Source of the DNA: a virus
Reading direction: 5' to 3' (one strand)
DNA length: 64,000 nucleotides
IMG/VR virus record: IMGVR_UViG_3300027971_000028
Location: 1-64,000 of that record
Every line of letters starts with the position of its first letter. Position 1 is the first letter of the stretch. Shown in pieces: positions 22,202 to 40,609 of this stretch. The notes below the pieces were generated by a model, which saw nothing but the letters and a program-made list of their open reading frames with translations, did not search any database and had not been told where the DNA came from. Position numbers and translations under genes: made by a program.

Positions 22202-22492
22202 ATGGACAACTTCTTTGAGTTATCAGTGGCTGGTCTTGCTACCTATAGAATAGCAAGGCTTATTGTTAAGGACGAAATATTCTCTAAATTAAGAAATGCA
22301 ATTTGGAAAAAGTTTCCCCCAGAGAAGTCCAAATTTGGCTACCTGTTCACCTGTATGTGGTGTACCGCAATTTGGGTCGCATCACTACTTGAAATATCAC
22401 GTATCATTATCCCTAACGTAATACATCCAGTAGAGGTTGTTCTAGCGATCTCTGCTATTGCTGGTTTGTTGGCTGCGTATGAAGAAAAGTGA
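22202..22492 (+). CDS. DUF1360-like membrane protein
   Basis: LATYRIARLIVKD.IF..LR...FTCMWCTAIW. Confidence 0.75.
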   Translation: MDNFFELSVAGLATYRIARLIVKDEIFSKLRNAIWKKFPPEKSKFGYLFTCMWCTAIWVASLLEISRIIIPNVIHPVEVVLAISAIAGLLAAYEEK

Positions 22493-22532
22493 TAGTTCTT
22501 CTACTCCGCCACAGAGACGAGGAGTTTCAAGG

Positions 22533-24260
22533 GTGAGTGTTTTCAAACACCAAGAGCCGATAGAGCCTACCCCTATCGTTGCGTCTGAAATTGTCCCAAA
22601 GAAAGTTAGAAAAAGAAAAAAGTCTACTACTCGTTCAACTCAGATAGTTAGAAACATTAAACCAAAACTTACAGGCGCTGCTGGAATATTTATTTCCTCT
22701 AATGCTCAAGCAGTTTCCTATTCAACACCTAGAACTTTAACTGCTGCTGCAGTACAAATTAAAATTAATGATAAAGGCGAGTTTGAACAATTCAAACAAC
22801 GTCGATCTGCTGGCTCTAGTGCATGGCAATCCGAAGCATGGGAATATTATGATGCTATTGGAGAAATAAAATATGCATTTAACTTAGTTGCTTCCGTTGT
22901 TTCTCGTATTCGTATCTACGCTGCTGCCATCGATAACGCTGCAGAAGCACCAGCACCCGTTGCGTTATCTAGTGTTATTGATCCACGTTTAGCAGCAGCT
23001 GCGGAGCGAGCACTTGCTCGTTTAGATTCTGCGTACGGTGGACAAGCAGGACTTCTTCGTGATGCTGCATTAAATATTTCAGTTGCTGGTGAATGTTATT
23101 TAGTTCAAATGCCAGAACGAGTTGGTTCAGGTATTCCAGAGTCTTGGGATATTAAATCTGTAGATGAAATAATGGCTGACACTCGCGGTGGATTTAATAT
23201 TGTTGGTCGCAGAGAACAAAGTATTGGTGGAGGTATGTCACCGAACAATAAACTTTCTAAGAGTGCATTTGTAGGACGCATCTGGCGTTCACATCCTCGT
23301 TACTCAGATGAAGCAGATTCATCTCTTCGTGGCTTACTAGATCTTTGCGCAGAACTTTTACTTCTTAATAGAACATTCCGTGCTACAGCACGTTCACGCC
23401 TAAATGCTGGTGCACTTTACTTGCCAGATGGTTTGTCAGTTGCAGCAGGTGGCGACCCAGACTATCCATATGACACAGATAGCGAAGCGAACCCAGGGTT
23501 TACTGCAGAAGAAGCAGAGGATGAGTTTGAAGAACAATTAATTGACGCTATGACAACTCCTATTCGCGACGAGGAGTCTGCTAGTGCAGTAGTTCCACTT
23601 ATTATTCGAGGTCCCGCTGAACTTGGCGACAAGATTAAACAATTTAAGTTTGAGCGTTCATTTGATCCAGCACTTGCTTCTCGCGCCGACAGAGTATTAG
23701 AGCGAATCCTGCAAGGACTAGATGTTCCTAAGGATGTTGTTACTGGTCTAGCAAACGTTAAGTATTCAAACGCACTTCAAATCGATGAGTCACTATATAA
23801 AGCACATATCGAACCATTGATGTTATTAATTGCTGATGCTTTAACAGTTGTTTACTTACGTCCATACCTTAAGGCACAAGGATTTACTGAATCAGAGGTA
23901 GATCGAATTGTTGTTTGGTATGACCCTTCAGCAGTTGCTACTAGAAATGATAAAGCAGCCGATGCTGACTCAGGATTTGATCGTGGCGCTATTTCTTACG
24001 ACTCATGGAGACGTGCTCATGGATTCTCATCTATGGATGCACCAACACCAAATGAACTTGCTATCCGAATGCTTTCTGAAAAGGGAGCAATTAGCCCTGA
24101 GTTAACAGAAGCAATGTTAAACACTGTTGCTCCAGAAATGATGAACGCAGTTAGAGATACACAGCAAGAAAATTCTGTTGCTCCTCTGCCACCAGAGGTA
24201 GAACAAGTTTTACAACAAGCAACACAACCCCCAACTGAGCAACAAGGAGTTACACAATGA
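22533..24260 (+). CDS. Portal protein (start revised from 22458)
   Basis: GAGGAG SD before GTG; WQSEAWEYYDAIGEIKY..., AVVP, LDVP...G..N.W/Y pattern of actinophage portals; first large head gene. Confidence 0.85.
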   Translation: MSVFKHQEPIEPTPIVASEIVPKKVRKRKKSTTRSTQIVRNIKPKLTGAAGIFISSNAQAVSYSTPRTLTAAAVQIKINDKGEFEQFKQRRSAGSSAWQSEAWEYYDAIGEIKYAFNLVASVVSRIRIYAAAIDNAAEAPAPVALSSVIDPRLAAAAERALARLDSAYGGQAGLLRDAALNISVAGECYLVQMPERVGSGIPESWDIKSVDEIMADTRGGFNIVGRREQSIGGGMSPNNKLSKSAFVGRIWRSHPRYSDEADSSLRGLLDLCAELLLLNRTFRATARSRLNAGALYLPDGLSVAAGGDPDYPYDTDSEANPGFTAEEAEDEFEEQLIDAMTTPIRDEESASAVVPLIIRGPAELGDKIKQFKFERSFDPALASRADRVLERILQGLDVPKDVVTGLANVKYSNALQIDESLYKAHIEPLMLLIADALTVVYLRPYLKAQGFTESEVDRIVVWYDPSAVATRNDKAADADSGFDRGAISYDSWRRAHGFSSMDAPTPNELAIRMLSEKGAISPELTEAMLNTVAPEMMNAVRDTQQENSVAPLPPEVEQVLQQATQPPTEQQGVTQ

Positions 24261-24712
24261 ACGTAGAAAAACCAGAACTAGTTAATGCTTTAGCAGTATC
24301 ACTTAGTGATGCTGTAGTGCTTTCTCATAAAGTACAAGGCGCTCATTGGAATGTTATGGGGCCTAATTTTCCAGAGTTTCATGAGTTCTTTGGTGAGATA
24401 TATGAAGACATTGATGGATCTATAGATCCTTTTGCTGAAAACATAAGAAAACTTGGAGCTGTATCTCCATCCCGTTTGTTTGAGTTCGCACGTATGTCAA
24501 ACGTTGAAGATACTGAAGTTGGATATATGTGCTTAGATCTTACTAACGATATTCTTATTGCTAATGCTGTAATGCTTAATGGGTTAAGAAGAGCATTTGA
24601 TATAGCAAATCAAGCAAATGAGCAAGGCATTGCAAACTTTATTGCAGAGCGTATTGATATGCATGCAAAGTGGGATTGGCAGTTAAAAGCAACTACTTAC
24701 CAAGGAATGTAA
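24257..24712 (+). CDS. dps: Dps/ferritin-like protein
   Basis: HWNVMGPNFPEFHEFFGEIYE...DPFAENIRKLG ferroxidase signature. Confidence 0.92.
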   Translation: MNVEKPELVNALAVSLSDAVVLSHKVQGAHWNVMGPNFPEFHEFFGEIYEDIDGSIDPFAENIRKLGAVSPSRLFEFARMSNVEDTEVGYMCLDLTNDILIANAVMLNGLRRAFDIANQANEQGIANFIAERIDMHAKWDWQLKATTYQGM

Positions 24713-24721
24713 ATAACAAAA

Positions 24722-25756
24722 ATGGCAAAGCAGTGGGCGCCCTCTAACTGGGCAAAAGAAGGTAGTAAGGATTATGTTCCTGTAACTACCTCTATTTCTG
24801 CTGCCGCTGGTTCAAAACCTGCCCCTAAAAAAGATCAAATAAAAGGCTCAAATAAAAACTCTAAAGGATCTGCATCAGGTTCTCGCAAAGTTGTTTTTTC
24901 TAAAGCAGTAGAGAACTCTCTTAAAGAGAAAGTCTCTAATCATAACGAGAAAAGTCCTAAAGGAAGAAGAGCAACTTTAGGTATGTTAAAAGCAGTTTAT
25001 CGTCGTGGCGCTGGAGCATTTTCTGTTTCTCATCGTCCTGGTATGAACCGTAATCAGTGGGCAATGGGAAGAGTAAATGCTTTTCTAAAACTACTTAAGT
25101 CTGGCAGACCAACAAATGCTGCTTATAAGTCAGACAATGATTTGCTACCATCTTCTCATCCTCGTAGCACTAAAAAATCAAACTCTATTACTGCAGCAGG
25201 TTTAGTTCCTGAAGAACAAGATTTAGCAAATGCATTGATTGAGATCTCGCAGAAGTATGGAAAATTTAATGAAGACGAAGAAGGTATTTGGGCAGGCTAC
25301 ACGCCGCCAGCGGAAAATGAAGTTGCTTCTATTGGTGTTACTTGCGCCAATTGCGTTCTATATGCTGGGGGTTCGAATTGTAAAATCATTGCTCTCCCAG
25401 TTGAGCCAACAGGAAAATGTAGATTTGCCGTAATACCTGACGGAGTTGTTAATGTAGAAGGCAGTAAAAATCTAACTGAAGTAAAAGATGAATTAGATGA
25501 GTACGTAATAGATCAAGAGTTAAATGTTCTACTAAAGAACAAAGAAGATTATGAAACTGTAGAAGATGCAATTTTTGCTATGACTGAGTATCTAGGTTAT
25601 GGATATGAAGCAGAGCCTGCAATTAGAGCAAGTTGGTTAAGAGCAGTTAAAAATGGAGAAGATCCATTCTTAAGAGCATCACTTCTTGCTTCACTAGGAA
25701 AAGGTAGTTTAGATGCAGATTTGCTTCCAGTACTAGAAGAGGAGGATCAAGCATGA
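24722..25756 (+). CDS. Two-domain head-associated protein (VYRRG...HRP...QWA..RVN domain plus Cys-rich domain)
   Basis: First domain recalls DUF5824-type proteins; second has CANC...C...C (HiPIP-like spacing). Confidence 0.6.
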   Translation: MAKQWAPSNWAKEGSKDYVPVTTSISAAAGSKPAPKKDQIKGSNKNSKGSASGSRKVVFSKAVENSLKEKVSNHNEKSPKGRRATLGMLKAVYRRGAGAFSVSHRPGMNRNQWAMGRVNAFLKLLKSGRPTNAAYKSDNDLLPSSHPRSTKKSNSITAAGLVPEEQDLANALIEISQKYGKFNEDEEGIWAGYTPPAENEVASIGVTCANCVLYAGGSNCKIIALPVEPTGKCRFAVIPDGVVNVEGSKNLTEVKDELDEYVIDQELNVLLKNKEDYETVEDAIFAMTEYLGYGYEAEPAIRASWLRAVKNGEDPFLRASLLASLGKGSLDADLLPVLEEEDQA

Positions 25757-28700
25757 GTAGAATAAGAAGAATTAGTTATGCCATCACTCCTGAAGGTCGT
25801 CGTGCTGTTGCTATTAAGCAAGCAGTAGATTTAAGAGATAAAGTTTTGTCAGTTGTAGATAATGCTAATTTTTCAACATCTACTGCAAGAAAGATTACTA
25901 AAAAAGCTGCTTTTTCTGTAGTTATGCGCTCTCTAGAAGAGAGCAAAGGATTGCCACTATCTCTTCGCGAGCACTTAGCAATGAAAGAACTTAATAAGTA
26001 CATATCACTTGCTAAACATAATAAAAGTGATTTCTTCTACGCAACTAATACAGATTTATTACCAATCTCTCACCCACGCTCAACTCGCGAGCATTCAATG
26101 ACTGCTAGTGCATTAAGAATTGCACGCTCTCGTTGGTTTGCTGCTGATCCAAGGATTACAGATGAAAGAGCAAAAGCAGTTCTTGCTTCAGCATTTGAAT
26201 CAATACCAGGATCTGTAGAGCATCTTTACTACACTTCAATATTACTTTCACTTCCTCAAGGAATGATTCCAGGCGAGGCTTTAATTGCAGCATCTGATGG
26301 AAACTCTTTTGAGTCACGTAGTGCTCGTGCTAGACGTCAACGTCGTGATCGTAAAGGAAGATTTGCTTATGAAGGTGGAGGTATTCGTGCTCTTATTCGT
26401 CGTCTTGACGGAAATGTATTTAGTCTTAGTGGAAGAGTAGTTGCCAACGCTAAAAATAGTAAAGATGTAGAAGTAGAGTTTCCAGATGGAAAAATCGCTG
26501 AAATAAATCCTGCTAAAGGTGAATATATAAAAGCAGTTCTACCTACTCCAAATGGCTACTCTCCTGAACCTATAATTCCAAGTGTAACTGATGAAGTTAT
26601 AAATGAAAAAGATTTAGTATTTCTTGATGCCCCTAACGGCTGGGAAAAAGATGAAAAATATAAAGAGTTTGGCGATAAAGTAGAGAGATATGTAGATTCT
26701 GATAAAGAGTTTGTAGTTTTTGTCTCTAAACAAGATGATGGAACAAAAGATTATCAAATACTAAATGCTAAGTCTGCTGAACAAATTGCTGTAGTTAAGA
26801 ACTGGGCAGATGTTCAAGATAAATTAGAAGGAAATGAAGATAAACTATTAAATCCAAAAGCAAATCTTCCATTTAGACAAGGCTTAATTCCTGCTGAAGA
26901 TAGACCAGGGCCAAATGCATATGAGCGCCTTATGGCTGAGAAAAAAGATAAAGAAAATGCCATTGCAAATCGTAAAGCAGAGTTAAAGAAGAATGCTGAT
27001 GACAGAGTAGATGCTTTAGATCGCACCGTCCCCGAGGGTTGGGATATTGAAGAGAAAAACAATGCTCTTATGTTACGCAGAGCCACAGAGCCAGCAGACT
27101 TAGAGAACGTTTATAAGCAAGATAACTTTGTAGCAAGAGTTATAGAGCAAGGTGATATCTCAGTTAAAGATGCAAACAATCTTTTAAAAGACAAGGTTTA
27201 TCAGAACTGGGCTTATGTAGATAAAGAAAAAGATGCTAGAGCCACGGAGTATGCTCAAAAGGCTCGTGAAGAGATTAAAAACTTTGCTCCTGCTTATGGA
27301 TACAAAGAAGAAGATTTAAAAAAGATTGATTCAATGTCCGCTGATGAAATTGCTAGTTTCTTTTTAGATGAAAAACTTCAACCAGAAGGATTTGCTAGTG
27401 CATTAGATGACTATATGAATTCAGCTATGGTAGATGCTCCATCTAAGCAACAAGAAGAAAAGTGGAATAGTTTTGGTAAAAAATTAAAGATTATAAATGA
27501 CGCTGGAGATTTTCCTGGTAATAATAAAAAGAAGGCTGAGTTACCTAAGCAACCAGATGCTCCAGTTGAAACTAAAGGTGGCTTTGAATTTAACTACCCA
27601 GCGGGGGCGTATAAAATTAAGCAAGGTTCTGCATATGATCCTCAAGGGCGCGTAGATGAAGATAGTCCAGACTTTACAGATGACCCTATTGAACTTGCTC
27701 AAAAGCAAGATGAAAGAGACATACTTGCTGCATTAGAGCAAGCAGTTTCTCCAGGAGAAAACGGGGAGAATGCTTTAGGAGTAGGAGCTCTTCCTTTTGC
27801 TAAAGGCGATGAGTTTGTTCCTGCTGAAGCACTTTTCTTTGCTTTAGAAGAAGCAGGAATTGATGCTCCTATGGAGTTAGCAAAGATTTATGATAAAAAA
27901 CTTGGTGCTGATAATAACGAAAAAGCATTAAATGATTTTAGAAAGAAAGCAGAGATTGTTTCTGGTAATACTCCAGAACTTGCCGAGTCATTTAAAAAAG
28001 TTACAGAACAAAATCCTGATTTAGAGCCTCCTACTCAAGAGCCAAAGTTTGATGCTAAAGAAATGGATTTGGTTCCACTTCCTCCGCTTCTAGAAGGTCT
28101 TAGCCAAAAAGAGTTAGATCAATTTAATGAGACAAAAGATCACATTCCATACTTACCTAAGAATGAAGAAATTCAAATGCCAGAAGGTTATAACCCTCTT
28201 AGCCCAGAGCCATTTGCAGCATGGAAAGAAGTAACTGCAGAAAATCCTGATGCAATTCTTCCTGAAGGCTTCTCAGACAATCCTGTTTTCTTAGCACAAG
28301 AGATTTCTACAAATGATTTGTTAAAAGAATTACGTCGATCTGTAGAACCAGGCAATGAGGTTCCAGGCGCTGCTGTAATAGCACTTCCTACAGATGATGG
28401 AGAAGACTTTGTTGCAAACGTACCAGGAGAAGCAGTTAGAGATGCTCTTCAACTTAAAGGAATTGACACTAACGCTGAATTAAAGAAGATTGCTGAAGAA
28501 GGATTAATCGGTCAAGTAGATGAGGCACCTGTAGCAGAACTTCCTGCTGATGATGCCATACGTCTTGTTGTTGATGGAGATGTTCCACTAGAGACTCAGA
28601 TTAGAGATGCAATTGCTGCTAAAAAGAAAATTGCATTCTTATACAATGGAACTGAGCGTTTAGTTCTTCCTGTAGAAGTTTTTGAAAATCCTAGAAACTC

Positions 28701-31700
28701 AAATGTAAATGTAAGAGCAATTGATGCAAAGGGAGACAAAAGAACATTTACTCTTAGCAAGATTGAGAACAGTAAAGAAGGTTCACCAGCGGGTACCCCC
28801 GAAATTACCGATAAAGAAATTTTTGATCGCCGCATGGCTGGAGAGTCATTACAAGATATTGCAGATGCTACAGGCATCCCTCGTGAAGAGATTCGTGCAA
28901 GAGAGGCTAAGTATGCTCGTGAGAACCCAGAAGCAAAGCCAGAGGCAGTTGTTGGAGACTACAAACCTACTGCTGATCAAATAGATAAACTTCAAAAGGG
29001 TGTTGCAGAGATGGATTGGCTAGATAACGGAATTATGTTCCTAAAGCCTGATGATGGTGGTCCTCGCGCAGAAGCACCTATTGAGATTTATGACGATAAT
29101 GGTTTACCAGAAGATGGCCCATTTGCAAAGATTGATTCAAATGGAAACTTTGAATGGAAAGATCAAGGAGCATACGATAAATATGCTGATCGCTTAAAAG
29201 AAATTCTAGATGCTGACTTAGCAGGTATCGGCAATAATCAAGATAACCAACAACCAAAAGAAATTGATAACGTGCCCGTCGAGCAGGCAAAACTTGATGA
29301 TAATCAAGAGCCAAAAGATAAAAAATATGTAGAAGAGAACCCTGAAGTAATCAAGGTGAATGCTTTTGTTGAAGCAAATGCTGGACGTCTTGCTCCTACT
29401 AAAGCAAGAGATGTAAAAACTGGTGATTTCTTATGGAATAACTTTAATAAAGTATATGAAGAGATTCTTGATATTCAACCAGCACCTTTTGGTCGAGTTA
29501 GGTTTTTAATTAAAGATCCAAGAAATCAAAAAGAGTATTTCCGTTTCTTTGATCGTCGCTCTCCTATTCGTAATATGCGTCGTCTTGGTACTGGAGAGGT
29601 GCCTGAAGATTTTAGAGTTCCGCCAGAAGAGAATAAGGGCGATGGACCAAAGCGTGGTCGCGCTTTAAGACAACCACTAGAAAAAAGAGTTGAAGTAGTT
29701 GCTGGGCGTGATGTAGGAGGATTTGCATACAGAGAAGGCTTCTATAAAGATAAAAATGGAATTGTTTTAAAACCTGGCGATAGAGTTCGTCATGGAAATG
29801 CAAAAAAGAATGAGATGTATGGCGAGGGTGTAGTTCTTGTTCGCGCTGGAGATCAGATTGATGAAGCCAAAAAGGTTGGTGGAATTGGTCGTAACGGAAA
29901 AGTTTATAAAGACTACGTATGGGTACAACTACCAGGTGAAGATGGTCCACGTTTGTGGAAATCAAGAATGATTGTCAGACAAGGAGATAACGCAGGTCCT
30001 GCTCGCGTTGCACCTGAGGCTAGAGATGTTGCACCTGATGCTCCTAAGATAGAGATCCCTAAAGCAGAGCCAATAGCAGAAAAAGTTCCTGACGCTGCTG
30101 ATATGAATGAAGAACTTATTCAAAAAGAACTTAAGAAGATTAGAGTTAAGTATCTCCCTAAAGCCAGAGATTATAAAGCAAATGATGAAGTCCGTGGTGC
30201 TGGTAAAAAACTAGACGAGGTAGTTAATAAATTAAATGCTGGAGAAAAAATAGAAGATCTTTCTACATCTCCTCTAGATTCAGCAATTCGTAAATTACGT
30301 AGAGTTAGGGATCTAGAGAATAACCCTAATGCGTTAGTTCTTGCTGACTATATAGAAAACTTCAAGAAAGAAATAGAAAAATATAAAGATGAGAAAGATA
30401 AAGAAAGACGTGCTGAGTTTGAAAGAATATTAAATGAGCCAATACCAGATGATTTAATCCCAGCAAACGTAGATGCTCTTGATGAAGAAAAAATTAAAGA
30501 GGCTGTAAAAGTAATTTCTATAAAACTTCCTAAGTGGAATGAGAGAGGCGCTAATCGCAAAGCAAGTGAGGCTGCCTACTACTTAGAGAGATTTGCTAAA
30601 GAAATGGATCAAGGTCAAGTAATTGAAGGAATTGACCCTGCTGATCTACTTCAGGTATCTACATACTTAAAAGACTCAGGGGATGCTAGATACGAGTCTT
30701 TGGGAGATAAGATAGATCAACTTAACGAACTTATCAAACAAAGACAAATTGCCAATGAGAAGCCTTTTGCTAAAGCAAATATGGAGTTTATTGATCCTGT
30801 TGCTGAAGCAGAAAAAAGAGTTAATAATAAAGATAATGAGTTTAATGCTTCTGAAAAACTACGATCTGCTTTTGCTTCAGATGAGATCTATCAACAAAAC
30901 TCTTATTTAAATCCTCATAAAGATCAATTAAAAGAATTTTTTGCTCTTGAAGGCGGGGCCTCTTTAGCAAAACTAGACCAAAAGGCTCGTCAGGCTTTGG
31001 CTCAATATGTAAGTCAAGAGATTAGAAATCCTGATGGCATGCAAGGTGCTGATGACGCTGAGACAGCAAAGAACATAAATGAAATTGCTACTTTAGTAAA
31101 AGCACTTCACGATGAAAAGATGGTTTACAGCCCAAATAGATCTAACATTGGACCAGCAGATGCTTTACTAAATATAGATCCTACAAAGATTTTAAATTTT
31201 GGAAAAACTCTTGATTCAGGAGTTCGTAAGAAGTTAGTTATAGATGGAAACGACACTGGGTTTGATATTCAAAGAGTTTCTCAAGGTATAAATAGCGGTA
31301 GCAACTTTAGACTTATACATAGACAAAGTGGTCAGGTTGTTTACTTTAAGAGAGAAAAAACAGAAGGAGCAGCTGATGCAGAGTATGTTTCTTCAAAGAT
31401 AGCCCAATCTCTAGGTATTGCAGGTGCAGCATATGTTCAAAAGCATCCAAACGATTCTAGAACAGTTCTTATTACAAATGCTGGAGATGGAATAGATTTT
31501 AAGAATAAGCCAGTACTATTTGATAACTTCCCTGGTAAATCTTCAACCGAGACTATTGCTAAGAGAGCTGCTCTTGCTGATGTGATTGGTTTAGCAGTTC
31601 TTGATGCTGTTATTTATAATACTGATAGACACGTACAAAACTTCTTAGCAGGAGTCGTTGACAATAAAGGCGTAGATAAAAATGGTTATGAAGAAATTCA

Positions 31701-32019: not shown

Positions 32020-32028
32020 GAGATAAAA

Positions 32029-32805
32029 ATGGCTATAGAAATATTTAGAGCATACGTAAACTCTGACCTGCCTATTCAAGATGGAGATCATATATTTTCC
32101 ATTATTGCTTCTGATGCTGATGTTGCTTTTGCTGCACCACAAGAAGTTATAGATTCATACGGTCTTACTCAAGAAAGAATTGATATGGCAAAAAATTTAT
32201 ACACTGCTTCTGATGTAGAACTACCTACAACACCAACGGACTGGGCGATACTGGCTTCAACAAATATGAGTCAAATTTCTGTTATTCCTTTTGATGTATC
32301 AGAGCCTTACGACACTATTGAGCAAGCAGTTACTGATGAGACTAGTGATGCTCAAGATGCGTTAGAGATAAGAAATGAAAATCAATCAGTAGAACCTGTA
32401 ACTGCTGCTGTATCAGATGCTTGTCCTCCTGCAACACAAGATATACCAACTAACCTTGCAAACCGCGAGAAGGCAATTAAAGATGCTGCTTATGGCCCAC
32501 TAAATCCAGCAGAACCAAATGAAGAATTCTGGCAAGAAAAAGCAACACGCTGGTCTGTAACAATAGATGAAGCAAAGAAGTCACGTTGCGGAAACTGCGT
32601 AATGTTTATTAGAACTACTAAAATGAAAGACTGCATTGCTCAAGGCATTGAGCAAGGTGGATCAAGTGAAAATAACGCTTGGGATGCTGTAGATGCTGCT
32701 GAACTTGGTTACTGCGAAGCATTTGATTTTAAATGCGCCGCTTCCAGGACTTGTAACGCTTGGGTTGCAGGTGGTCCAATTGATGACTCTAAGGCAAAGG
32801 AGTAG
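32029..32805 (+). CDS. Protein with C-terminal Cys-rich domain
   Basis: CPPATQD...RCGNCVMF...GYCEAFDFKCAASRTCNAW. Confidence 0.75.
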   Translation: MAIEIFRAYVNSDLPIQDGDHIFSIIASDADVAFAAPQEVIDSYGLTQERIDMAKNLYTASDVELPTTPTDWAILASTNMSQISVIPFDVSEPYDTIEQAVTDETSDAQDALEIRNENQSVEPVTAAVSDACPPATQDIPTNLANREKAIKDAAYGPLNPAEPNEEFWQEKATRWSVTIDEAKKSRCGNCVMFIRTTKMKDCIAQGIEQGGSSENNAWDAVDAAELGYCEAFDFKCAASRTCNAWVAGGPIDDSKAKE

Positions 32806-32807
32806 TT

Positions 32808-33092
32808 ATGGCTTTCACACCAGATAAACCAGAAAACATTTCAGATTTGTATGCACTGATTGATACAGAATTTGATGAGGTAGTAGTAGTAATTTACGAG
32901 TCAGATGAAGGCACTTTCTACAGACAGAATGGTGACTGGATTGAGCTATCTGACGAGGATGACCACTTTGATTTTGATGGTTTAATGGTCATATATGTTG
33001 ACCCCGCCTTTATAGCCGTATACGACGAAGCCGAAGGTTCCAGCGAGGCTATTGGAATAAACGAACTAAAAGAGTACGAGTCAGCGAAGTAA
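32808..33092 (+). CDS. Small acidic hypothetical protein
   Basis: ORF track; AAGGAG SD. Confidence 0.75.
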   Translation: MAFTPDKPENISDLYALIDTEFDEVVVVIYESDEGTFYRQNGDWIELSDEDDHFDFDGLMVIYVDPAFIAVYDEAEGSSEAIGINELKEYESAK

Positions 33093-33109
33093 AAGAGACG
33101 GAGTTTAAG

Positions 33110-36100
33110 TTGCAATTTATAGGTCGTAGTGGGAATAACGCCTTATTTGTGCTTGAAAACAAGGCTGTAGTTGTAGACGAAAAAAGAAACTTAGTTTCTT
33201 CTATTGACTATGCAGATGCGCTCACTGCTTCTTTCACTCCTGATGATAACCAAGAGAATCCATCTTCTGTTACTTACGAGTTAGCAACCGCTGCAATATC
33301 AGATTTAGACATAAAGATTTTTTCAAATAATGACCGTTTATACACAATTCCAAAATCAGTTCAGTCAGAGGCAAAACGTGCCTTAGAGTGGCGTAAAAAG
33401 CATGATCGCGGTGGCACATCGGTAGGTTTAAATACTGCTAGAACTCTTGCTCGTGGTGGTCAAATTGGTATTAGAAAAATTCGTCACATCGCTAAGTACT
33501 TCCCTCGTCATCAAGTAGATAAAAAAGGAAAAGGCTACGAGCCTTCAGAACCTGGCTATCCTTCAAATGGACGCATCGCTTGGGCTCTTTGGGGTGGAGA
33601 TGCTGCTGAACGCTGGGCCAGTGCAATAGTTGCCCGTGAAAATAAGAAGGCTCAGGCAAACTCAATTACTGCTTCATATAAATTTGTTATGGCCGACTAT
33701 GAGTCTCCAGAAAAGGTAGAACTTAACTCTTTTATAGAGTCAGAGATGTTGCCAGAAGATATGGCTCCTCAGTTCTTTATTCGTATTCGTTTAGATGGTA
33801 CTGGCATTGATCGCTTATATAAAGTAAATACAGACGGATCAGTCTTTGTTTGGGACGATGCAATGTGGGAAGATCTTGGAAATATTAACTATGATTTTCA
33901 CACTTACGATAAAAGCCTCGATGATCCCTATGACATGGTTGAGAAAATACATGTTCCTGTAGACACAGAAACTGCAATTATTGTTTCAGGAAACTTAGAC
34001 TCTAATCCTATGAAATCAATTTCTATATCTCAAATTAATCAAGAAGAGTCTGACATATTTGTAGATGAGATGGATAAAATTGATTGGGATTTAATTAATG
34101 AGATTTCTTATGATGAAAATATGTATAGCGAGTATGAGGAGTTTTCAGACTCTTCTTTAACTGCTGCCACTGCTCCGACAGCAGGAACTCCTGTAACTAA
34201 TCAAGATGGAAATTACACTCCAGAAGAGCGCTCTCAGAAAGCACGTTCTCAGGTAAGAGATGCTATAGGTAAGTTTGCCAAGTCTGGTGGACGAGTTGTT
34301 ATTGGTAAAAAGCCAGAGTATTCAGGAACTATTGAATCTATTAACCCTGCTACTCAAAGCGTTAAGGTTAAGTTAGATAATGGAAATTATGTTGATGTTC
34401 CTGCTAATACTACAGAGCCTGCAGATACTTTTAAACCACTTCCACAAGAAAAAACTTTAACATCTACTAAGCAACTTACTAAAGGAATTTTAGGAGAGCC
34501 TAGAGTTCCTATTGATTCCCCTAATGCCACTCTTCCTGGAAAACTTCCTCAATTAAACACTGCTCAAGTTCAAACAATATTAAATGACCTTCCAGCATGG
34601 AGCACTGATCAAAGATTAAAAGCATCTTCTCCTAGCGCTCCTACGGCTGTTAGCACAGAAACAAAAACTCCTAATGCTTATAACGATCCAAGTTTAAGAA
34701 AGTTTTTAGAGAAAAAAGTTGTAGTAAATGGAGAAACCACTTATCCTAATTCAATTTGGTATCAACCAAAAGTAGATCCTTCTTCAATAGAAGGCTACAA
34801 ACCAACTAAAGACTTAACTCCTTCCCCTGGATTAAAAGTTCCACCTGCTTTTCGACAACCTGCTAAAGGTCTTACCTCTGCTGCATCTGTAGCATTAACG
34901 CCAGATACTTCAGATGTTCCACCAATTTATATGGCAATTGTTTCACCTGATGATCCTCAAGCGGTAATGGAATTAGTTTCATTAATACCTACTAGTAAAG
35001 ACTCTGTTGTAACTTCTACATGGAAGCGTAAGCCAGGAGTATGGGAAAAAGATGACTCAATTCTTTCTGATTTAAAGAGTCCTACACCTCCACCAGTTGT
35101 TGTCTTAGATGATGACACCTTAAAAATAGTTTTGGATCAAATAGATTCAGCTGCTAAAACTGCATCTGCATATATTACAGATTCAATAATTTCTTCCTTA
35201 ATTGCTGCTGGAGGAATTGACCGTAACAAAGGAAATGCTGAAAAACTTCGTCGTTATTGGTTATATGGAAAAGGTGCAGCAAAAATTCGTTGGAATACCG
35301 CAGGTGATTGGACCCGCTGCGTTCGCCAACTTTCAAAATACATGGGTCCTCGAGCAAAAGGCTACTGTGCATTGCGTCATAAAGAAGCAACTGGCATGTG
35401 GACTGGAGATAAGGAGCATCGTCAACTTTATGGCAAAAAAGGAATTAGAGCAGACGCGTTTAGCACAGATTTTATACTTCCTTCTGAAGCCATACTCGAA
35501 GCAACCTCTCTTAAAGCAAGAGCAGCGGATGCCAGAAACAGAGTTGTCTTAGCAGGAGCAGAGATAGAAGATTTTAAAGGAGCAGAGTTTGTTATTCCTT
35601 TAGTTATCCCAGAAGACATAGAGTCTGGAGATGGTCGTAAGTTTGAAAAAGGCGCTATTACTATGCGTGAACTTCCTCTTCCATTTTTATGGCAAATTAA
35701 GACTGGCGAGGGTCATTCTGGATCAGTTGTAATTGGAACAATTATTCAGATGGAAAGAGTAGAACAAGGTATTGGAAATGCCAGAGGATATTTTGATACT
35801 GGAGAATACGGAAAAGAAGCGGAAAGATTAGTTCGTGGAGGCTTCATCCGTGGAGTTTCTGCTGATATGGACATGTTTGAAGCAGATGAAGAAAAAGAAA
35901 ATGCTGAAAATGACTCTAACAAAAAAGTTGGAGCAGGTAAAATGAACATAACTAAGGCAAGGGTTATGGCTGTAACTCTTGTCCCCAAGCCCGCTTTTCA
36001 GGAATGTCGAGTAGAACTCGCAGACCAAAGCGGAGAAATGCAGGAGGAAGAAGTGATATCTGATGGAGTGTATGTCGAAGGATTAAATCCTTTAGACGCA

Positions 36101-38302
36101 TCAGCGTTAGTAGCGTGTGGAATTGTGGCTGGGTCAATACCAGTTACTCCACCGAAAGATTGGTTTGCTAACCCAAAATTAAAAAAACCAACCGCACTAA
36201 CAGTAACTGATGAAGGTCAAGTGTATGGTCACATTGCTGCATGGCATGTAGATCATATTGGAATGTCTTATGGAACTCGTCCTCCTCGGAGTAAGAGCAG
36301 TTATGCATACTTCCACACTGGTGCTGTACGTGCTGACGATGGAACAGATGTTCCAGTTGGACAATTAACTTTAGCTGGAGGACATGCTTCTCTTGAAGCA
36401 AGTGCTTCAGAAGCAGTTCGTCATTATGACGACACAGCATCTGCAGTAGCAGATGTACATGCTGGAGAAGATGCTTATGGTATCTGGGTATCAGGAGCAC
36501 TTCGCCCTGGCACAACTCCAGAACAAATTCGTGCTCTACGTGCCTCTGCTCCGTCAGGAGATTGGAGACCGATTAAAGGTGCTTTAGAGCTTGTAGCAAT
36601 TTGTCAGGTAAATGTTCCTGGCTTCCCAATTGCTCGTGCTCGTGTTGCATCAGGTCAAGTTATGGCACTTGTTGCTGCTGGTGCAAGCGTTCTTGCTCAA
36701 CTAAAGAACGATCCTTTAGCAGAGTTACATACTCGAATTGATAAACTAGAAGCACCATTAATTGCGGCTAGTAATAGTGCTAAAGATAGAATGAGAACAA
36801 TTACTGCTGCTATTAAAGCATCTGAATTATCTAATAGAGTAAATAAGATGAAAGAAGAATCTTCTTCTTATATGCTTCAAAGTATTGATAACTCAGATTC
36901 AGAGTTAGCAGTCATTACTCGCAAACAACGTATGGAATTAGCAAAAGATAAAAAAGCACTTCCAGATGGGTCATTCCCAATTAGAAATGTTTCTGATCTA
37001 AAAAATGCTGTTCATGCATATGGACGTGCTAAGCCAGGAAATCGTGGTTTGGTTCGCCGTCATATTGTAAAGATGGCTCGTCAGTTAGATCGAAAAGATC
37101 TAATTCCAGAGAACTGGAAAGAAGCATCCGTAAACGATACAGATAGTATTGCTGCTAGTTTAAGAGCAAGAATCTCTATTGTTGAATCAGTTGTTGCCGC
37201 TGGCGGTTTGGATCGTAACCGGGGAAACGCTGAAACGCTTCGTCGCTACTGGACAAGAGGCGAAGGAGCTGCAAAAATCCGTTGGGGAGCACCTGGTGAC
37301 TGGAGTAGATGCGTAAAGCATTTAGCAAAGTATCTAGGTCCTCGTGCTAAGGGTTACTGTCAACTACGTCATAAAGATGCTTTAGGTATTTACACTGCAA
37401 CACATGCTAAGCGTGATAGAGCTAAGAATAATTCTGTAGAAGAATTTTCTAGTGATTACATGCCAGAGACAATGGAGCAGATGGAGATTCCACAGGATCA
37501 ACTACAAATGCCTGTAAGCAAAATTATTCAACAACCAGATGATCTATATGACGCTCAATGGGAGCCAGAAGATATGATTGTTGTCATTTTAAATGAAATG
37601 GGAGAGGCTTCAGAAGCAGATTTTTTAGCCAATTCTGAAACATTTGCTGAAAAAGATCCTTATGTAGTAGATCAAAGTGAGCCTGTTGGTACACCTGATT
37701 TAACAAAAGAAGATCTAAAAGGTCTTACAGATGAAGAAACAGATATACTAAAAAAAGAAGTTAAGAGTAAGCAAGACGCAGAAAAGTCTAGAGCTAAATA
37801 CACACCTAAAACCCAACCCCGTGATGCCACAGGGAAGTTTCGACAAGTGCTTGCTCGGTTGAAACTGGACCTAGGTGATGCTGGATCAGATGCTGCATTA
37901 AAGAAGATTGAAGAGGTTGATAATCTAGATAATGCTGGTAACTACGCTGAAGCAGCCAAGGCTGCTGGCGATTTGCTAGATATTGTAGATAGATTAGATA
38001 CAGGAGCACTTAACGCTGAGGCTATAGGCAATGTTAGAAACAGTGCTGGAGAATTAGGCAAGGTTATTGCTAACCTACCTTTTGCCTTTGGAGAAGATGC
38101 TCAGAAGATCAGATTTAGTGATGTACCACCTGCCCTACAGGATCTAATGGAAAAAATGATCACTAGGGTTGAGAATAAAATTGGTCAAAAAGACGCAGAT
38201 ATTGCTACTAAAGGTATGAAGGACTTTATGTCAGGTCAAGAGGTCTACAGCCAGAGCGAGATATCTAGTCAAATGTCTAAGTTACTTAGACTACTTACCT
38301 AA
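33110..38302 (+). CDS. 1730-aa multidomain capsid maturation protease
   Basis: HK97-type protease core IESGDGRKF...LPLPFLWQ...GHSGSVVIG...RGVSAD...TLVPKPAF; second WF.NP.L..PT...GHIA.W domain; position between portal and capsid genes. Confidence 0.8.
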   Translation: MQFIGRSGNNALFVLENKAVVVDEKRNLVSSIDYADALTASFTPDDNQENPSSVTYELATAAISDLDIKIFSNNDRLYTIPKSVQSEAKRALEWRKKHDRGGTSVGLNTARTLARGGQIGIRKIRHIAKYFPRHQVDKKGKGYEPSEPGYPSNGRIAWALWGGDAAERWASAIVARENKKAQANSITASYKFVMADYESPEKVELNSFIESEMLPEDMAPQFFIRIRLDGTGIDRLYKVNTDGSVFVWDDAMWEDLGNINYDFHTYDKSLDDPYDMVEKIHVPVDTETAIIVSGNLDSNPMKSISISQINQEESDIFVDEMDKIDWDLINEISYDENMYSEYEEFSDSSLTAATAPTAGTPVTNQDGNYTPEERSQKARSQVRDAIGKFAKSGGRVVIGKKPEYSGTIESINPATQSVKVKLDNGNYVDVPANTTEPADTFKPLPQEKTLTSTKQLTKGILGEPRVPIDSPNATLPGKLPQLNTAQVQTILNDLPAWSTDQRLKASSPSAPTAVSTETKTPNAYNDPSLRKFLEKKVVVNGETTYPNSIWYQPKVDPSSIEGYKPTKDLTPSPGLKVPPAFRQPAKGLTSAASVALTPDTSDVPPIYMAIVSPDDPQAVMELVSLIPTSKDSVVTSTWKRKPGVWEKDDSILSDLKSPTPPPVVVLDDDTLKIVLDQIDSAAKTASAYITDSIISSLIAAGGIDRNKGNAEKLRRYWLYGKGAAKIRWNTAGDWTRCVRQLSKYMGPRAKGYCALRHKEATGMWTGDKEHRQLYGKKGIRADAFSTDFILPSEAILEATSLKARAADARNRVVLAGAEIEDFKGAEFVIPLVIPEDIESGDGRKFEKGAITMRELPLPFLWQIKTGEGHSGSVVIGTIIQMERVEQGIGNARGYFDTGEYGKEAERLVRGGFIRGVSADMDMFEADEEKENAENDSNKKVGAGKMNITKARVMAVTLVPKPAFQECRVELADQSGEMQEEEVISDGVYVEGLNPLDASALVACGIVAGSIPVTPPKDWFANPKLKKPTALTVTDEGQVYGHIAAWHVDHIGMSYGTRPPRSKSSYAYFHTGAVRADDGTDVPVGQLTLAGGHASLEASASEAVRHYDDTASAVADVHAGEDAYGIWVSGALRPGTTPEQIRALRASAPSGDWRPIKGALELVAICQVNVPGFPIARARVASGQVMALVAAGASVLAQLKNDPLAELHTRIDKLEAPLIAASNSAKDRMRTITAAIKASELSNRVNKMKEESSSYMLQSIDNSDSELAVITRKQRMELAKDKKALPDGSFPIRNVSDLKNAVHAYGRAKPGNRGLVRRHIVKMARQLDRKDLIPENWKEASVNDTDSIAASLRARISIVESVVAAGGLDRNRGNAETLRRYWTRGEGAAKIRWGAPGDWSRCVKHLAKYLGPRAKGYCQLRHKDALGIYTATHAKRDRAKNNSVEEFSSDYMPETMEQMEIPQDQLQMPVSKIIQQPDDLYDAQWEPEDMIVVILNEMGEASEADFLANSETFAEKDPYVVDQSEPVGTPDLTKEDLKGLTDEETDILKKEVKSKQDAEKSRAKYTPKTQPRDATGKFRQVLARLKLDLGDAGSDAALKKIEEVDNLDNAGNYAEAAKAAGDLLDIVDRLDTGALNAEAIGNVRNSAGELGKVIANLPFAFGEDAQKIRFSDVPPALQDLMEKMITRVENKIGQKDADIATKGMKDFMSGQEVYSQSEISSQMSKLLRLLT

Positions 38303-38361
38303 TCGGTAAAAACAGTACAAAAAAGAAAATCACACTATAAGAACTAATGTAGTATTCAGTA

Positions 38362-38470
38362 TTAGGTGGAGTGCCTCCACGCATCTATTGCGTCCGCGAG
38401 TCCCTCAGCCTCGACTGATCAGCGAGATGGGGAAAAGCCCTATCCTAACTGACCCTAAGGAGGGACAGTA
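38362..38470 (+). promoter_or_regulatory. Structured 5' leader of the major capsid gene
   Basis: GTGGAG/CTCCAC, ACGCA/TGCGT, TCAG/CTGA, GATGGGG/CCCTATC, and GTCCCT/AGGGAC pairing over the SD; TAGTAT -10 at 38350. Confidence 0.5.
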
Positions 38471-40609
38471 GTGGACCAAATCAAACAAATGATGGATCAG
38501 TTATCTGACATCACTGACGAACAAGTTAGTGAACTTCAGGCATCTATCCTCAGCGAATTTGAATCGGTCGAGAAGGAGGATCCTACTCCGCAGACAGTTG
38601 ACGCTATGACGTCACTTGCCGACATGCTCGATGGAGTTAGAAACGAAATCAAGCGTCGTGAGGTAGCAACTGTAGAACTTGCTCAAAAAGCAGCAGAAGC
38701 AACTAATCGCGTATACGGAAAAGAAGACGAAAATAAAGACATGGAAACTACTGAAGTTAAAGATGCTGCAATGCATGAAGAGGCTCCTGCCGCTCCTGCT
38801 GAAGAAGCACCTGTAACTGAAGAAGCACCTGTTTCTGAAACTCCTGCCCCAACCATGGAAGAGGAGAAAAAAATGGAAGATGCAGCAGCAATGCCTGCAG
38901 CTCCAGAAGTTACTCCAGAAGTAGAAGATGAAAAATCTCCTGCAGACATGGAAGAAGACAAAAAGGAAGAAAAGGAAATGGAAAAAACTATGACTGAAGC
39001 GTCAACCGAAGCAGATAAGAAATCTGAATTTTCGACTGAAGTTAAAGAAACAACTGAAGCAGCAGCAGCTGTGGAAGAGATAGTTGTTGCAGCTGTTGCA
39101 GAAGCACCAGCAACAACAACAACAGCAGAAGTACCAGTAGTAGCAGAAGCAGCAGTTGTAGAAGAGGTAGCAGTATCGCAAGATGCTCCTGCAGCTGAAG
39201 CAGCAGTTGTTGTTACTGAAGGTGCTGAAGCAGCAATCATTGAAACACCAACACAAACAGAAAATGTGCAAACAGCACAAGAAACTATGGAGGCACCCGT
39301 GACCGCCGCTGCAGATAACGCAGATAACCTCAACATCGAGGTACCGGCTGACCGTCGCCCAACATCTCGGACAACAGAAGCAGCCGTGGCAATCACTGCT
39401 GGTGCTGATATTCCTGGATATACAGCAGGCAGCTCAATTTCAAGCATGGCAGAAGTTGCAGAAGCAATGGCCAAGCGTCTACATGGCCTACGCCGTGTAA
39501 ATGGTGGAGATGGAGAACAACATATTGTTGCTTCTATTTCTACCCAATTTCCAGAGGCTCGCACCCTTAATCAGGATGCACAAGCTAACTGGGACAAAGT
39601 ACAAGCTGTAGTCGGACCTGAGGCACTTGTTGCTTCTGGTGGACATCAAGCACCTTTCGAGGTTAAGTACGATATCTTCGGTCTTGGCTCAGCAGTGCGC
39701 CCAGTCCGTGATTCTCTACCTCGTTTCCAAGCAGACCGTGGCGGTATCCGCTACATCACTCCACCAGTACTTAGCTCATATGCTAGCGCTGTTGGTGTAT
39801 GGACTGCTGCTAACGATTCAGCAGAAACACCAAGCCCAGCTTCAAAGTTGAGCTTAACTGTAGCCGCAGCTGCTGAGACAACTGTCTCAACTGATGCTGT
39901 TACTTTGCAACTACAATTCGGTAACCTTCTAAGCCGTGCATATCCTGAATTAATTGCTCGTCACAACGAACTTGGTTTAATTCAACATGCTCGCGAGGCT
40001 GAAGGAAATCTTATGGCAAAAATCGGTTCAGCATCAACAGCCGTTACTTCAACTTCCGTAATTGGAATGGGTCGTGACTTCCTAGTTCAACTAGGTCGCG
40101 CTGCTGCCGCTTACCGTGCACGTCATCGTCTAGATGCAGATGCTCCACTTCGCGCAATTATTCCAGCATGGATTAAAGACGCAATGGCAGCTGATCTAAC
40201 TTTAAATATGCCTGGAGATTCAACTCTAAATGCATATGCAGAGATTGATGGCTACATTGCAGCTCGCGGAATCAACGCTACATTTGCTCTAGATACTGCA
40301 GCAGGAGCTTCTCCTTTTGCAGCACAGAGCTCTGGCGCAATGAATGAGTTCCCAGATACATTCGTTTGGTACTTATTTGCTGAAGGATCATTCTTGTTCC
40401 TTGATGGTGGCACTTTGGATCTTGGAGTTATCCGTGATTCAACACTTGTCGGCACCAACGACTACAAGATGTTCGTTGAAACCTTTGAGAACGTTGCCCT
40501 TATCGGCGTCGAATCTCTACAGGTTACATCAACTATCAATGTAAACGGAGTAGCAGCCGCTCTTCGCGATACACTTGGTGGATTGACTGCAGCAACAATC
40601 GAGTACTAA
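38471..40609 (+). CDS. Major capsid (hexamer) protein with long acidic N-terminal scaffold-like region
   Basis: ITAGADIPG, LVASGG, LPRFQADRGGIRY, FAEGSFLFLDGGTLDLGVIRDSTL...NDY..F.ETFE, typical of cluster-B-like hexamer proteins; codon bias of a highly expressed gene. Confidence 0.9.
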   Translation: MDQIKQMMDQLSDITDEQVSELQASILSEFESVEKEDPTPQTVDAMTSLADMLDGVRNEIKRREVATVELAQKAAEATNRVYGKEDENKDMETTEVKDAAMHEEAPAAPAEEAPVTEEAPVSETPAPTMEEEKKMEDAAAMPAAPEVTPEVEDEKSPADMEEDKKEEKEMEKTMTEASTEADKKSEFSTEVKETTEAAAAVEEIVVAAVAEAPATTTTAEVPVVAEAAVVEEVAVSQDAPAAEAAVVVTEGAEAAIIETPTQTENVQTAQETMEAPVTAAADNADNLNIEVPADRRPTSRTTEAAVAITAGADIPGYTAGSSISSMAEVAEAMAKRLHGLRRVNGGDGEQHIVASISTQFPEARTLNQDAQANWDKVQAVVGPEALVASGGHQAPFEVKYDIFGLGSAVRPVRDSLPRFQADRGGIRYITPPVLSSYASAVGVWTAANDSAETPSPASKLSLTVAAAAETTVSTDAVTLQLQFGNLLSRAYPELIARHNELGLIQHAREAEGNLMAKIGSASTAVTSTSVIGMGRDFLVQLGRAAAAYRARHRLDADAPLRAIIPAWIKDAMAADLTLNMPGDSTLNAYAEIDGYIAARGINATFALDTAAGASPFAAQSSGAMNEFPDTFVWYLFAEGSFLFLDGGTLDLGVIRDSTLVGTNDYKMFVETFENVALIGVESLQVTSTINVNGVAAALRDTLGGLTAATIEY

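Follow-up and report, generated by a model that had tools for sequence, protein, structure and literature searches.

In T4 and phiKZ, many head proteins are processed at short motifs by gp21 (L/I-x-E) and gp175 (S/A/G-x-E), and N-terminal targeting peptides are removed. The freshwater phage analyzed here (the window, positions 1 to 64,000 of IMG/VR record IMGVR_UViG_3300027971_000028, holds its head module) resembles these systems in its gp21-fold protease, in a short motif that is enriched in head and not in other proteins, and in N-proximal sites in internal and cargo proteins that spare the large C-terminal part. It differs from them in that Ala, not Glu, occupies the putative P1 position, in that the protease sits within an apparent polyprotein of 1730 aa, and in that the putative propeptides are long (100–180 aa) and include a shared folded module. 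With HK97 gp4/gp5 and its delta domain the locus shares a scaffold-like N-terminal extension of the capsid protein, a protease gene just upstream and a weak Peptidase_S78 match, whereas its extension is far longer (280–390 aa, with an acidic variable linker) and its site motif, unlike in HK97, is recognizable and conserved across distant relatives. For capsid proteins of such actinophages the cut site has been called unpredictable (bioRxiv 10.1101/2022.09.09.507160).

The R and M sites of herpes assemblin (PrV) read YLQA-T and VQA-S, and the herpes protease-scaffold layout resembles that of the window phage (PMC4498786). Alike are the fold, the embedding of the protease in a longer polypeptide of scaffold-like character, the presence of a conserved site immediately behind the protease domain and, for sites that are presumed to be cut in the window phage, their form, hydrophobic-x-Ala followed by Ser/Thr/Ala. 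Unlike herpesvirus assemblin (UL26/UL26.5), the window phage has two protease-fold domains in tandem, many more sites, spread across portal, cargo and capsid proteins, and a second motif position restricted to Thr/Val/Ile. Self-processing by embedded metallopeptidase domains has been proposed for phage polyvalent proteins (Iyer et al. 2017, PMC5512222), which, like the 2088-aa protein of this locus with its putative multidomain build, are giant proteins encoded among head genes and presumably packaged and delivered; the 2088-aa protein differs in that its motif copies are N-proximal only and belong to a motif common to all head proteins, an arrangement that speaks for a prohead protease and for trimming in place of dicing. 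The presumed kind of process is ordinary, and the tag itself has not been described before. We consider it probable that the phage's prohead protease, itself contained in the 1730-aa protein, recognizes and cuts the head proteins at the conserved subset of motif copies, which numbers about 14 sites.

Enrichment of the motif in head proteins

The motif consists of Leu/Ile/Val/Met, Thr/Val/Ile, Ala and Ala/Ser ([LIVM][TIV]A[AS]) and recurs only in head-building proteins of the freshwater phage and its relatives. Each coordinate listed in the initial annotation translates to the tetrapeptide given there within the ORF given there, and a regex search adds seven sites (portal 22575 and 22884; 258-aa protein 32101; protease 33221; capsid 39083, 39524 and 40583). 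By a definition of the motif made after inspection of these same proteins, the head module (8 ORFs, 5977 aa) holds 21 matches against 4.8 expected from per-protein composition (2000 shuffles, maximum 13), and the rest of the 133-kb genome (163 ORFs, 34968 aa) holds 25 against 26.2, so the proposed comparison of head with other proteins came out in favor of a head-specific excess. Shuffling the head proteins in blocks of 15, 25 or 50 residues yields only about 5 matches (maximum 14), and local composition therefore does not explain the excess. Permuted or substituted control motifs occur in head proteins at 0.4–1.9 times expectation, with one that overlaps the motif at 2.9 times, and the extended form [APST]-core-[GAST] sharpens the difference, with 11 matches against 0.46 in head proteins and 3 against 3.8 elsewhere. 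Codons differ among the sites, thus the signal lies at the peptide and not at the DNA level.

Some 14 of the 21 head-module sites are conserved at aligned positions and sit at module borders. About one-third of the sites listed in the initial annotation lack conservation. Among all matches, the copies at portal aa 40, protease aa 1217 and 1231 (both within a predicted long helix) and capsid aa 205 and 705 are probably due to chance, judging from the alignments.

The excess recurs in eight comparison phages (DSL-LC01, Pumpernickel, Cece, Atuin, Forza, GMA2, JangoPhett and Piperis), with 106 matches against 24.1 expected (4.4-fold) in head-module proteins and no such excess in tail and other proteins (22 against 17.2), a replication that is only partly independent, since these phages are homologous to the window phage and the motif was chosen post hoc. 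The first 60 residues of head proteins, taken over the eight phages and the window, hold 17 matches against 2.7.

Sites in portal, cargo and capsid proteins

The features of these proteins, all on the + strand, are as follows.
22458..24260, +, portal protein, 600 aa (phrog_776 match, E 1e-107)
22575, +, portal IVAS, aa 40, non-conserved (19% of 56 IMG/VR homologues)
22737–22748, +, portal LTAA, aa 94–97, conserved (56/56 IMG/VR homologues)
22884, +, portal LVAS, aa 143, conserved, inside the core (56/56 IMG/VR homologues)
24869..25198, +, N-terminal DUF5824-like module of the 344-aa protein, aa 50–159 (Pfam DUF5824, E 3e-7)
25786..26109, +, second occurrence of this module, near the N-terminus of the 2088-aa protein, aa 12–119, ending in S-MTAS (26098–26109)
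26281..26292, +, LIAA of the 2088-aa protein, aa 177–180 (71% of homologues; LLAA in another 20%)
32398..32409, +, VTAA of the 258-aa protein, aa 124–127, where homology to a DSL-LC01 protein starts
38471..40609, +, major capsid protein, 712 aa (phrog_777 match)
39299, +, capsid VTAA, aa 277, end of the acidic linker (100% of 57 sequences)
39524, +, capsid IVAS, aa 352 (100% of 57 sequences)
39626, +, capsid LVAS-GG, aa 386, followed by the HK97-type body (98% of 57 sequences)

An equivalent of the conserved portal LTAA, R-x-LTA[AS], lies near the portal N-terminus in Pumpernickel, Cece, JangoPhett, Piperis and GMA2. The N-terminal modules of the 344-aa and 2088-aa proteins align with each other (BLASTP, E 4e-6) and both segments stop at the motif; that of the 344-aa protein terminates exactly in S-ITAA (25187–25198), a site kept in 82% of 44 homologues, and at the S-MTAS of the 2088-aa protein most of 34 homologues have either the motif itself or a close variant of it (LTAS, LSAS). 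The LIAA of the 2088-aa protein is proposed, from these sequence comparisons, to mark the end of an N-terminal propeptide: the alignment with the giant protein of Pumpernickel begins at this site, and the giant protein of Cece starts with MPITA-LTAA-GGNS at the corresponding position. The 2088-aa protein, a head-module gene product whose sole Pfam match is sub-threshold and kinase-like, has just these two motif copies, both in its first 180 residues, and none in the remaining 1900 aa; cleavage would therefore trim and not dice it, leaving the effector-like body as a single fragment of about 1900 aa. In the 258-aa protein, aa 122–253 align with aa 101–241 of the DSL-LC01 protein (BLASTP), where A-VTAA-V stands at aa 103; for this site the alignment of IMG/VR sequences is ambiguous.

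The capsid protein comprises a conserved helical N-terminal part (aa 1–80), a variable acidic linker (aa 81–276) and, after LVAS-GG, the HK97-type body. Conservation among the 57 sequences is low for its VVAA (aa 205) and LTAA (aa 705), and the capsid proteins of JangoPhett and Piperis, 26% identical, have the same three sites as those listed above. Shotgun mass spectrometry of virions has been published for Gordonia phage GMA2 (PMC4524720, Table S5). Three capsid-protein peptides in these data fall at aa 15–69, upstream of every candidate site, and a tryptic peptide at aa 213–225 spans, uncut, the LIAS that is the counterpart of aa 352 in the window capsid protein, the other sites being covered by no GMA2 peptide. 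That virion preparation had not been resolved on gels and could have included proheads; in it, the counterpart of aa 352 was thus left uncut at least in part, and the N-terminal part was at least partly retained.

The putative protease polyprotein and its two protease-fold domains

The protease gene lies between the portal and major capsid protein genes, as is the case for assemblin/gp21/HK97-type prohead proteases (MEROPS clan SH), and the gene order portal, cargo proteins, protease protein, capsid protein is the same in relatives. Its features, again all on the + strand and with sites taken from homologue alignments, are the following.
33110..38302, +, apparent protease polyprotein, 1730 aa
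33221, +, LTAS, aa 38, weaker
33665, +, ITAS, aa 186, conserved
34157, +, LTAA, aa 350, conserved
35198, +, LIAA-GG, aa 697, conserved
35210..35419, +, 65-aa Cys/His domain, copy 1, directly after LIAA (phrog_6439 match)
35567..36031, +, protease-fold domain 1, aa 820–974 (AF2 model; conserved His869, Ser917)
36107, +, LVAC, aa 1000, conserved, outside the regex (LVAA/MVAS in relatives)
36191..36619, +, protease-fold domain 2, about aa 1028–1170 (AF2 model; invariant His1092, Ser1146, Ser1149)
36668..36682, +, LVAAG, aa 1187, in the disordered loop immediately following protease domain 2
aa 1217 and 1231, +, LIAA and ITAA, probably chance matches
37190, +, VVAA-GG, aa 1361, conserved
37202..37414, +, 65-aa domain, copy 2, directly after VVAA (insertion in a minority of homologues)

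According to the AF2 models, both domains have the T4 gp21/herpesvirus assemblin fold and stand in tandem. Domain 1 superimposes (VIA-align) on T4 gp21 (5jbl) with Z 10.3 over 126 residues (rmsd 3.4) and on the herpesvirus proteases with Z 9.9 (VZV) and 7.6–9.3 (others). For domain 2, an unbiased search of 48,161 chains returned only two at Z of at least 5, these being T4 gp21 (Z 7.5, 120 residues) and VZV protease (Z 5.6). Against Pfam PF04586 (Peptidase_S78), domain 1 scores 19.2 bits (E 1.4e-3), below the cut-off of 21, and domain 2 gives no match; one homologue, P0085, carries a precomputed PF04586 match. Domain 2 is a homologue of the protein annotated as 'capsid maturation protease' in cluster B mycobacteriophages and Gordonia phages, and tblastn with it matched 862 phage records. 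The two domains have no detectable sequence similarity to each other. From conservation among homologues, candidate catalytic residues stand in the expected order and spacing in both: His869/Ser917 in domain 1 and His1092/Ser1146/Ser1149 in domain 2.

Behind domain 2 follows LVAAG, in which four residues (V, A, A, G) do not vary and L hardly varies among 63 homologues (53–83% identity), in a loop with pLDDT below 50 (residues 349–381 and 178–210 of two AF2 models). By analogy with the herpesvirus R-site, we propose it as a candidate self-release site. Both copies of the 65-aa domain begin directly after LIAA-GG and VVAA-GG, as had been remarked from the sequence at the outset. The domain also exists as a separate gene, in 22 stand-alone homologues of 67–122 aa, most of which have their Met start within a few residues of the motif position in the fused form. 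The region of copy 2 (aa 1376–1500) has conservation 0, and the xxAAGG in front of the domain is present or absent together with it.

With about six to seven conserved sites, the 1730-aa protein looks, from its sequence, like the only true polyprotein of the locus. The initial annotation had suggested that the head proteins at large may be processed polyproteins and that a few giant ORFs could release perhaps 15–20 separate proteins. Of this reading, comparative evidence supports a head-specific conserved signal at module borders, a protease of predicted gp21/assemblin fold whose herpesvirus relatives cut sites of like form, and an invariant LVAAG after it. The polyprotein part narrows to the 1730-aa protein, and the larger number looks overstated, the 2088-aa protein having two N-proximal sites and the 1730-aa protein some six or seven conserved ones.

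Proposed cleavage and its alternatives

In the process we envisage, the portal, 344-aa, 2088-aa, 258-aa, protease and capsid proteins would co-assemble into a prohead, in which the protease would cut itself free at the LVAAG that follows domain 2 and at the sites to either side of the 65-aa domain, with the polyprotein cut into about six or seven pieces. N-terminal targeting modules would be removed from the portal and cargo proteins, and the capsid protein would be cut where the acidic linker ends and/or at LVAS-GG, which would separate its scaffold-like N-terminal part from the HK97-type body. The scissile bond would most likely be that between Ala and the next Ala/Ser, by analogy with assemblins, which cut (V/L/I)-x-A-S between A and S, and the cut may alternatively fall one residue further on, before Gly/Ala.

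The motif might instead be a docking or addressing tag, a strand-forming peptide bound by a common head partner that recruits proteins into the prohead with most copies left intact. This we hold to be rather unlikely, even if it would accommodate the GMA2 virions with their uncut site-2 peptide and N-terminal capsid peptides, the lack of detectable sequence similarity between the two protease-fold domains, one of which could then be a binding module, and the two small head-region proteins of relatives that terminate exactly in W-MVAA, as expected of a free C-terminal tag. Release is better suited by the invariant disordered-loop copy after the protease and by the copies that replace gene borders, and both domains retain the conserved His and Ser. 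Candidate partners for docking are a non-cutting protease-fold domain acting as adaptor, the scaffold and the portal. Targeting and cleavage signals are found side by side in T4, and docking and cutting are therefore not exclusive.

It is improbable that the conserved copies are ordinary structural residues, small and hydrophobic ones in strands or helix caps that homologous head proteins have inherited, so that the excess would stem from shared ancestry and Ala/Val/Thr-rich linkers and carry no common function. The motif-bearing proteins are not homologous to each other, local-composition shuffles fall short of the count, permuted motifs are not enriched, copies at nonhomologous positions in relatives increase the excess, and several copies form conserved islands amid variable or disordered sequence. 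All this stands against the nonconservation of about a third of the matches, the post hoc choice of the regex and the location of several copies in highly conserved, probably folded sequence, among them portal aa 143 and capsid aa 352, two sites that could well be conserved for structural reasons. Cutting by a host enzyme, in keeping with [TIV]-A-[AS] obeying the small-x-small (−3/−1) rule of signal peptidase I, would have a precedent in staphylococcal phage 80alpha, where a host protease trims head proteins, and would agree with Forza, which keeps the motif with domain 2 only and domain 1 absent, yet it is very hard to credit for cytoplasmic head proteins without signal peptides, given that protease domain 2 is present in every motif-carrying phage and that the motif flanks the phage protease itself.

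Returning to cleavage by the phage protease, we tentatively raise the possibility that a single code, hydrophobic-[T/V/I]-Ala-[Ala/Ser] with the cut between Ala and Ala/Ser, is common to a large actinophage clade and is read by a tandem double-assemblin protease with the P3/P1/P1' logic of herpesviruses. If true, phage and herpesvirus capsid proteases would have a substrate preference in common, besides their fold. One of the two protease-fold domains may then act as an adaptor, binding the motif and loading cargo ahead of cutting by the other. The putative clade takes in freshwater phages of the window type, cluster B mycobacteriophages, and Gordonia, Microbacterium and Arthrobacter phages.

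Distribution of the motif

A single phage contig of 133,336 bp with ~40% G+C, the first 64 kb of which form the window, has as its closest named phages the uncultured Actinomycetia phage DSL-LC01 and Microbacterium phages Pumpernickel and Cece, with Arthrobacter phage Atuin and Gordonia phages Forza and GMA2 also among them. The features that matter here are the following.

22458–40609: head module, comprising the portal (phrog_776), a 344-aa protein (DUF5824 match), a 2088-aa protein, 258-aa and 94-aa proteins, a 1730-aa protein (the protease protein; PHROG 'head maturation protease' matches) and the 712-aa major capsid protein (phrog_777)
24257–24712: ferritin/Dps-like protein, its gene following that of the portal and preceding those of the cargo (Pfam Ferritin, E 7e-15)
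24869–25198 and 25786–26109: shared DUF5824-like N-terminal module of the 344-aa and 2088-aa proteins, respectively (30% identity over 115 residues)
35210–35419 and 37202–37414: two copies of a 65-aa domain in the protease protein (phrog_6439, no assigned function)
35567–36619: two tandem T4 gp21/herpesvirus assemblin-fold domains in the 1730-aa protein
42621–42632 and 44401–44412: motif copies in the major tail protein (DF-IIAS-S) and a 168-aa protein (LTAA)

The ferritin is fused to the protease protein in some metagenomic relatives (PF00210 in the precomputed Pfam list for homologues P0004, P0005, P0007 and P0011). A 288-aa protein encoded after the capsid gene (40698–41564; phrog_779, no assigned function) holds the position of the cluster B mycobacteriophage gene annotated 'major capsid pentamer protein', a correspondence by place.

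The initial annotation had placed the motif [LIVM][TIV]A[AS] in nearly every head-module protein; translation reproduced all of its motif coordinates and added seven further matches. The excess proved confined to the head module, with 21 matches where composition predicts 4.8, compared to 25 against 26.2 in the other 163 ORFs. Shuffling never gave more than 13 head-module matches in 2000 trials, shuffling inside blocks of 15–50 residues left the expectation near 5, and permuted or substituted control motifs were not enriched in head proteins. Adding the usual neighbours ([APST] before, [GAST] after) sharpened the contrast to 11 against 0.46 expected in the head proteins and 3 against 3.8 elsewhere. 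Codons vary among the sites, so that the signal lies at the peptide level and a repeat at the DNA level is ruled out. A search for exact tri- and tetrapeptides enriched in head proteins missed the motif on account of its degeneracy. With the expression unchanged, the head-module proteins of eight other phages hold 106 matches against 24.1 expected, and their tail and other proteins 22 against 17.2. In the nine phages pooled, head proteins contain 17 matches within their first 60 residues against 2.7 expected, examples being the giant protein of Cece, which starts MPITA-LTAA-GG, and the third protease piece of DSL-LC01, which starts MTNSEA-VIAA. Across 160 IMG/VR loci the excess is 5.5-fold in the protease-protein family and 3.9-fold in the capsid family.

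Conserved copies and module borders

Three capsid copies stand out among 57 distinct sequences: VTAA (aa 277) and IVAS (aa 352), both kept in 100%, and LVAS|GG (aa 386), kept in 98%. The first is a conserved island that ends a poorly conserved acidic linker, and all three recur in the capsid proteins of phages JangoPhett (ITAS, LVAA and LIAA-GGWC) and Piperis, which share only 26% identity with that of the window; the start of the HK97 fold relative to them is placed by sequence comparison. Portal LTAA (aa 94) is kept in 56/56 homologues, and distant portals carry a counterpart near the N-terminus. In the protease protein, sites near aa 186, 350, 697, 1187 and 1361 are common to relatives, and LVAAG (aa 1187–1191) is invariant in 63 homologues of 53–83% identity. 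Between the two protease-fold domains lies a homologous site that reads LVAC in the window, LVAA in Pumpernickel, Cece and Piperis, and MVAS in JangoPhett. Five matches are poorly conserved and probably arose by chance: one in the portal (aa 40), two in the protease protein (aa 1217 and 1231, both within a long predicted helix) and two in the capsid protein (aa 205 and 705).

The copies also coincide with module borders. The 344-aa protein (aa 50–159) and the 2088-aa protein (aa 12–119) have in common a module (E 4e-6) that ends in both as ...DLLPxSHPRSTxxxS-[IM]TA[AS] and is followed by unrelated C-terminal parts; it looks like a common head-targeting module. The stretch after LIAA in the 2088-aa protein resembles the one behind the LTAA of the protease protein (E 1.5e-4), and it is at this LIAA that the alignment with the giant protein of Pumpernickel begins. 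Homology of the 258-aa protein with DSL-LC01 likewise begins at its VTAA. As had been noted, both copies of the 65-aa Cys/His domain come right after the motif. In other phages this domain is encoded by a small gene of its own, its Met being no more than a few residues away from where the motif stands here, and stand-alone proteins of 67–122 aa occur in metagenomes; its Cys, Cys and Tyr are invariant, its His nearly so, and copy 2 is an insertion found in a minority of homologues only. In DSL-LC01 the 1730-aa homologue is split into three CDSs (L001:11998–16917), the break points of which fall off the motif sites, may be frameshifts or assembly errors, and neither support nor oppose processing.

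Protease domains and proposed cleavage

In a structure model, domain 1 (aa 820–974) matches T4 gp21 (Z 10.3) and herpesvirus proteases (Z 7.6–9.9); its Pfam S78 match is below threshold, and it retains His869 and Ser917. Domain 2 (about aa 1028–1170) matches T4 gp21 (Z 7.5) and VZV protease (Z 5.6), the only two at Z≥5 among 48,161 chains searched, and has an invariant His and Ser. No sequence similarity between the two was detected by hhalign, and a recent duplication is not supported. In the genomes of cluster B mycobacteriophages and of many Gordonia and Microbacterium phages, domain 2 is the part labelled capsid maturation protease; 862 phage records carry this domain. Both domains are present in JangoPhett, Piperis, Atuin, Pumpernickel and Cece; Forza has the second alone, its whole genome giving no domain 1 or S78 match where the control phage Atuin scored E 8e-53. 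Domain 2 is therefore probably a protease that is active in its own right. The tandem protease-fold pair, one member of which is the only protease candidate in Forza-type phages, merits a structural look. NCBIfam was uninformative on the protease domains, on the shared N-terminal module and on the 65-aa domain.

A herpesvirus assemblin is synthesised joined to the scaffold, detaches itself at an R-site that immediately follows the protease and processes the scaffold at an M-site; in pseudorabies virus these sites read YLQA-T and VQA-S (PMC4498786). The window motif is likewise hydrophobic-x-Ala followed by a small residue, and the invariant copy in the protease protein occupies the R-site position; in models, LVAAG lies in a loop (pLDDT <50) right after domain 2. 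Because of this form and this position we read the conserved copies as putative cut sites of the phage's own protease, with the scissile bond most likely after Ala. Cutting would trim N-terminal modules off the portal and cargo, yield six or seven fragments from the 1730-aa protein and part the scaffold-like portion of the capsid protein from its body. Processing of the same kind, at other motifs, takes place in T4 and phiKZ, and systems in which a prohead protease of the gp21/assemblin fold cuts at a coded motif are already known. The idea in the initial annotation that many proteins, effectors included, could come off a few giant ORFs is not supported for the 2088-aa protein, which has none of the sites past aa 180. 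In JangoPhett the protease-MuF fusion (L086:5216–7789) carries RVAAGGWTAPSEQDY immediately before domain 1 and the capsid protein (L086:8613–10358) carries LIAAGGWCAPSEQLY at the third site; enzyme and substrate thus share one extended sequence.

The one data set of relevance that we located comes from GMA2 virions analysed by shotgun mass spectrometry (PMC4524720, Table S5), the peptides of which, other than those of orf10, we placed by five-residue tags. It includes three capsid-protein peptides from aa 15–69, so the N-terminal part was present in the preparation, which may have contained proheads. A tryptic peptide (aa 213–225) spans the LIAS that corresponds to window capsid aa 352, so at this position some of the protein at least stays uncut; none of the detected peptides covers the other candidate sites. 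That the motif acts as a docking tag and is left uncut we consider unlikely, and that its copies are kept by structural conservation distinctly improbable. Cutting of the sites by a host protease is very unlikely. In the literature we found no N-terminal or semi-tryptic data for the present phage group; the Rosebush supplement gives coverage figures only (at most 6% for the capsid protein), and cluster J data, which concern an unrelated HK97-like system, were set aside. Sequence searches of solved structures with the capsid, the protease protein, the JangoPhett capsid and a capsid profile gave no match, and no solved relative could supply a mature N-terminus.

Our literature search turned up neither an account of this motif nor a cut site of any kind for the actinophage protease family, and a recent structural survey of actinophage capsid proteins calls the delta-domain cut site unpredictable (bioRxiv 10.1101/2022.09.09.507160). 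For polyvalent proteins, processing by embedded metallopeptidases has been proposed (Iyer et al. 2017, PMC5512222), unlike the prohead-protease reading here. If the motif is a cut site, one could predict where the mature capsid, portal and packaged cargo proteins begin or end in hundreds of sequenced actinobacteriophages, including cluster B mycobacteriophages and many SEA-PHAGES isolates, and there would be a rule for which head-encoded giant proteins get trimmed and packaged, as well as a phage example of herpesvirus-like protease specificity. These predictions are open to test in phages already cultured.

Further copies, some at protein C-termini

The 127-aa and tail-tube families show a 4–6-fold motif excess in IMG/VR relatives, owing to single conserved copies. 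In the major tail protein, DF-IIAS-S is conserved ten residues from the C-terminus, as it is in DSL-LC01, and the 168-aa protein ends ...LT-LTAA-VP. Two small proteins, Piperis gp24 (L087:5836–6120, beside the protease gene) and JangoPhett gp3 (L086:1294–1509, its gene separating those of the terminase and the portal), have W-MVAA as their very last residues before the stop codon, which resembles a ready-made product end.
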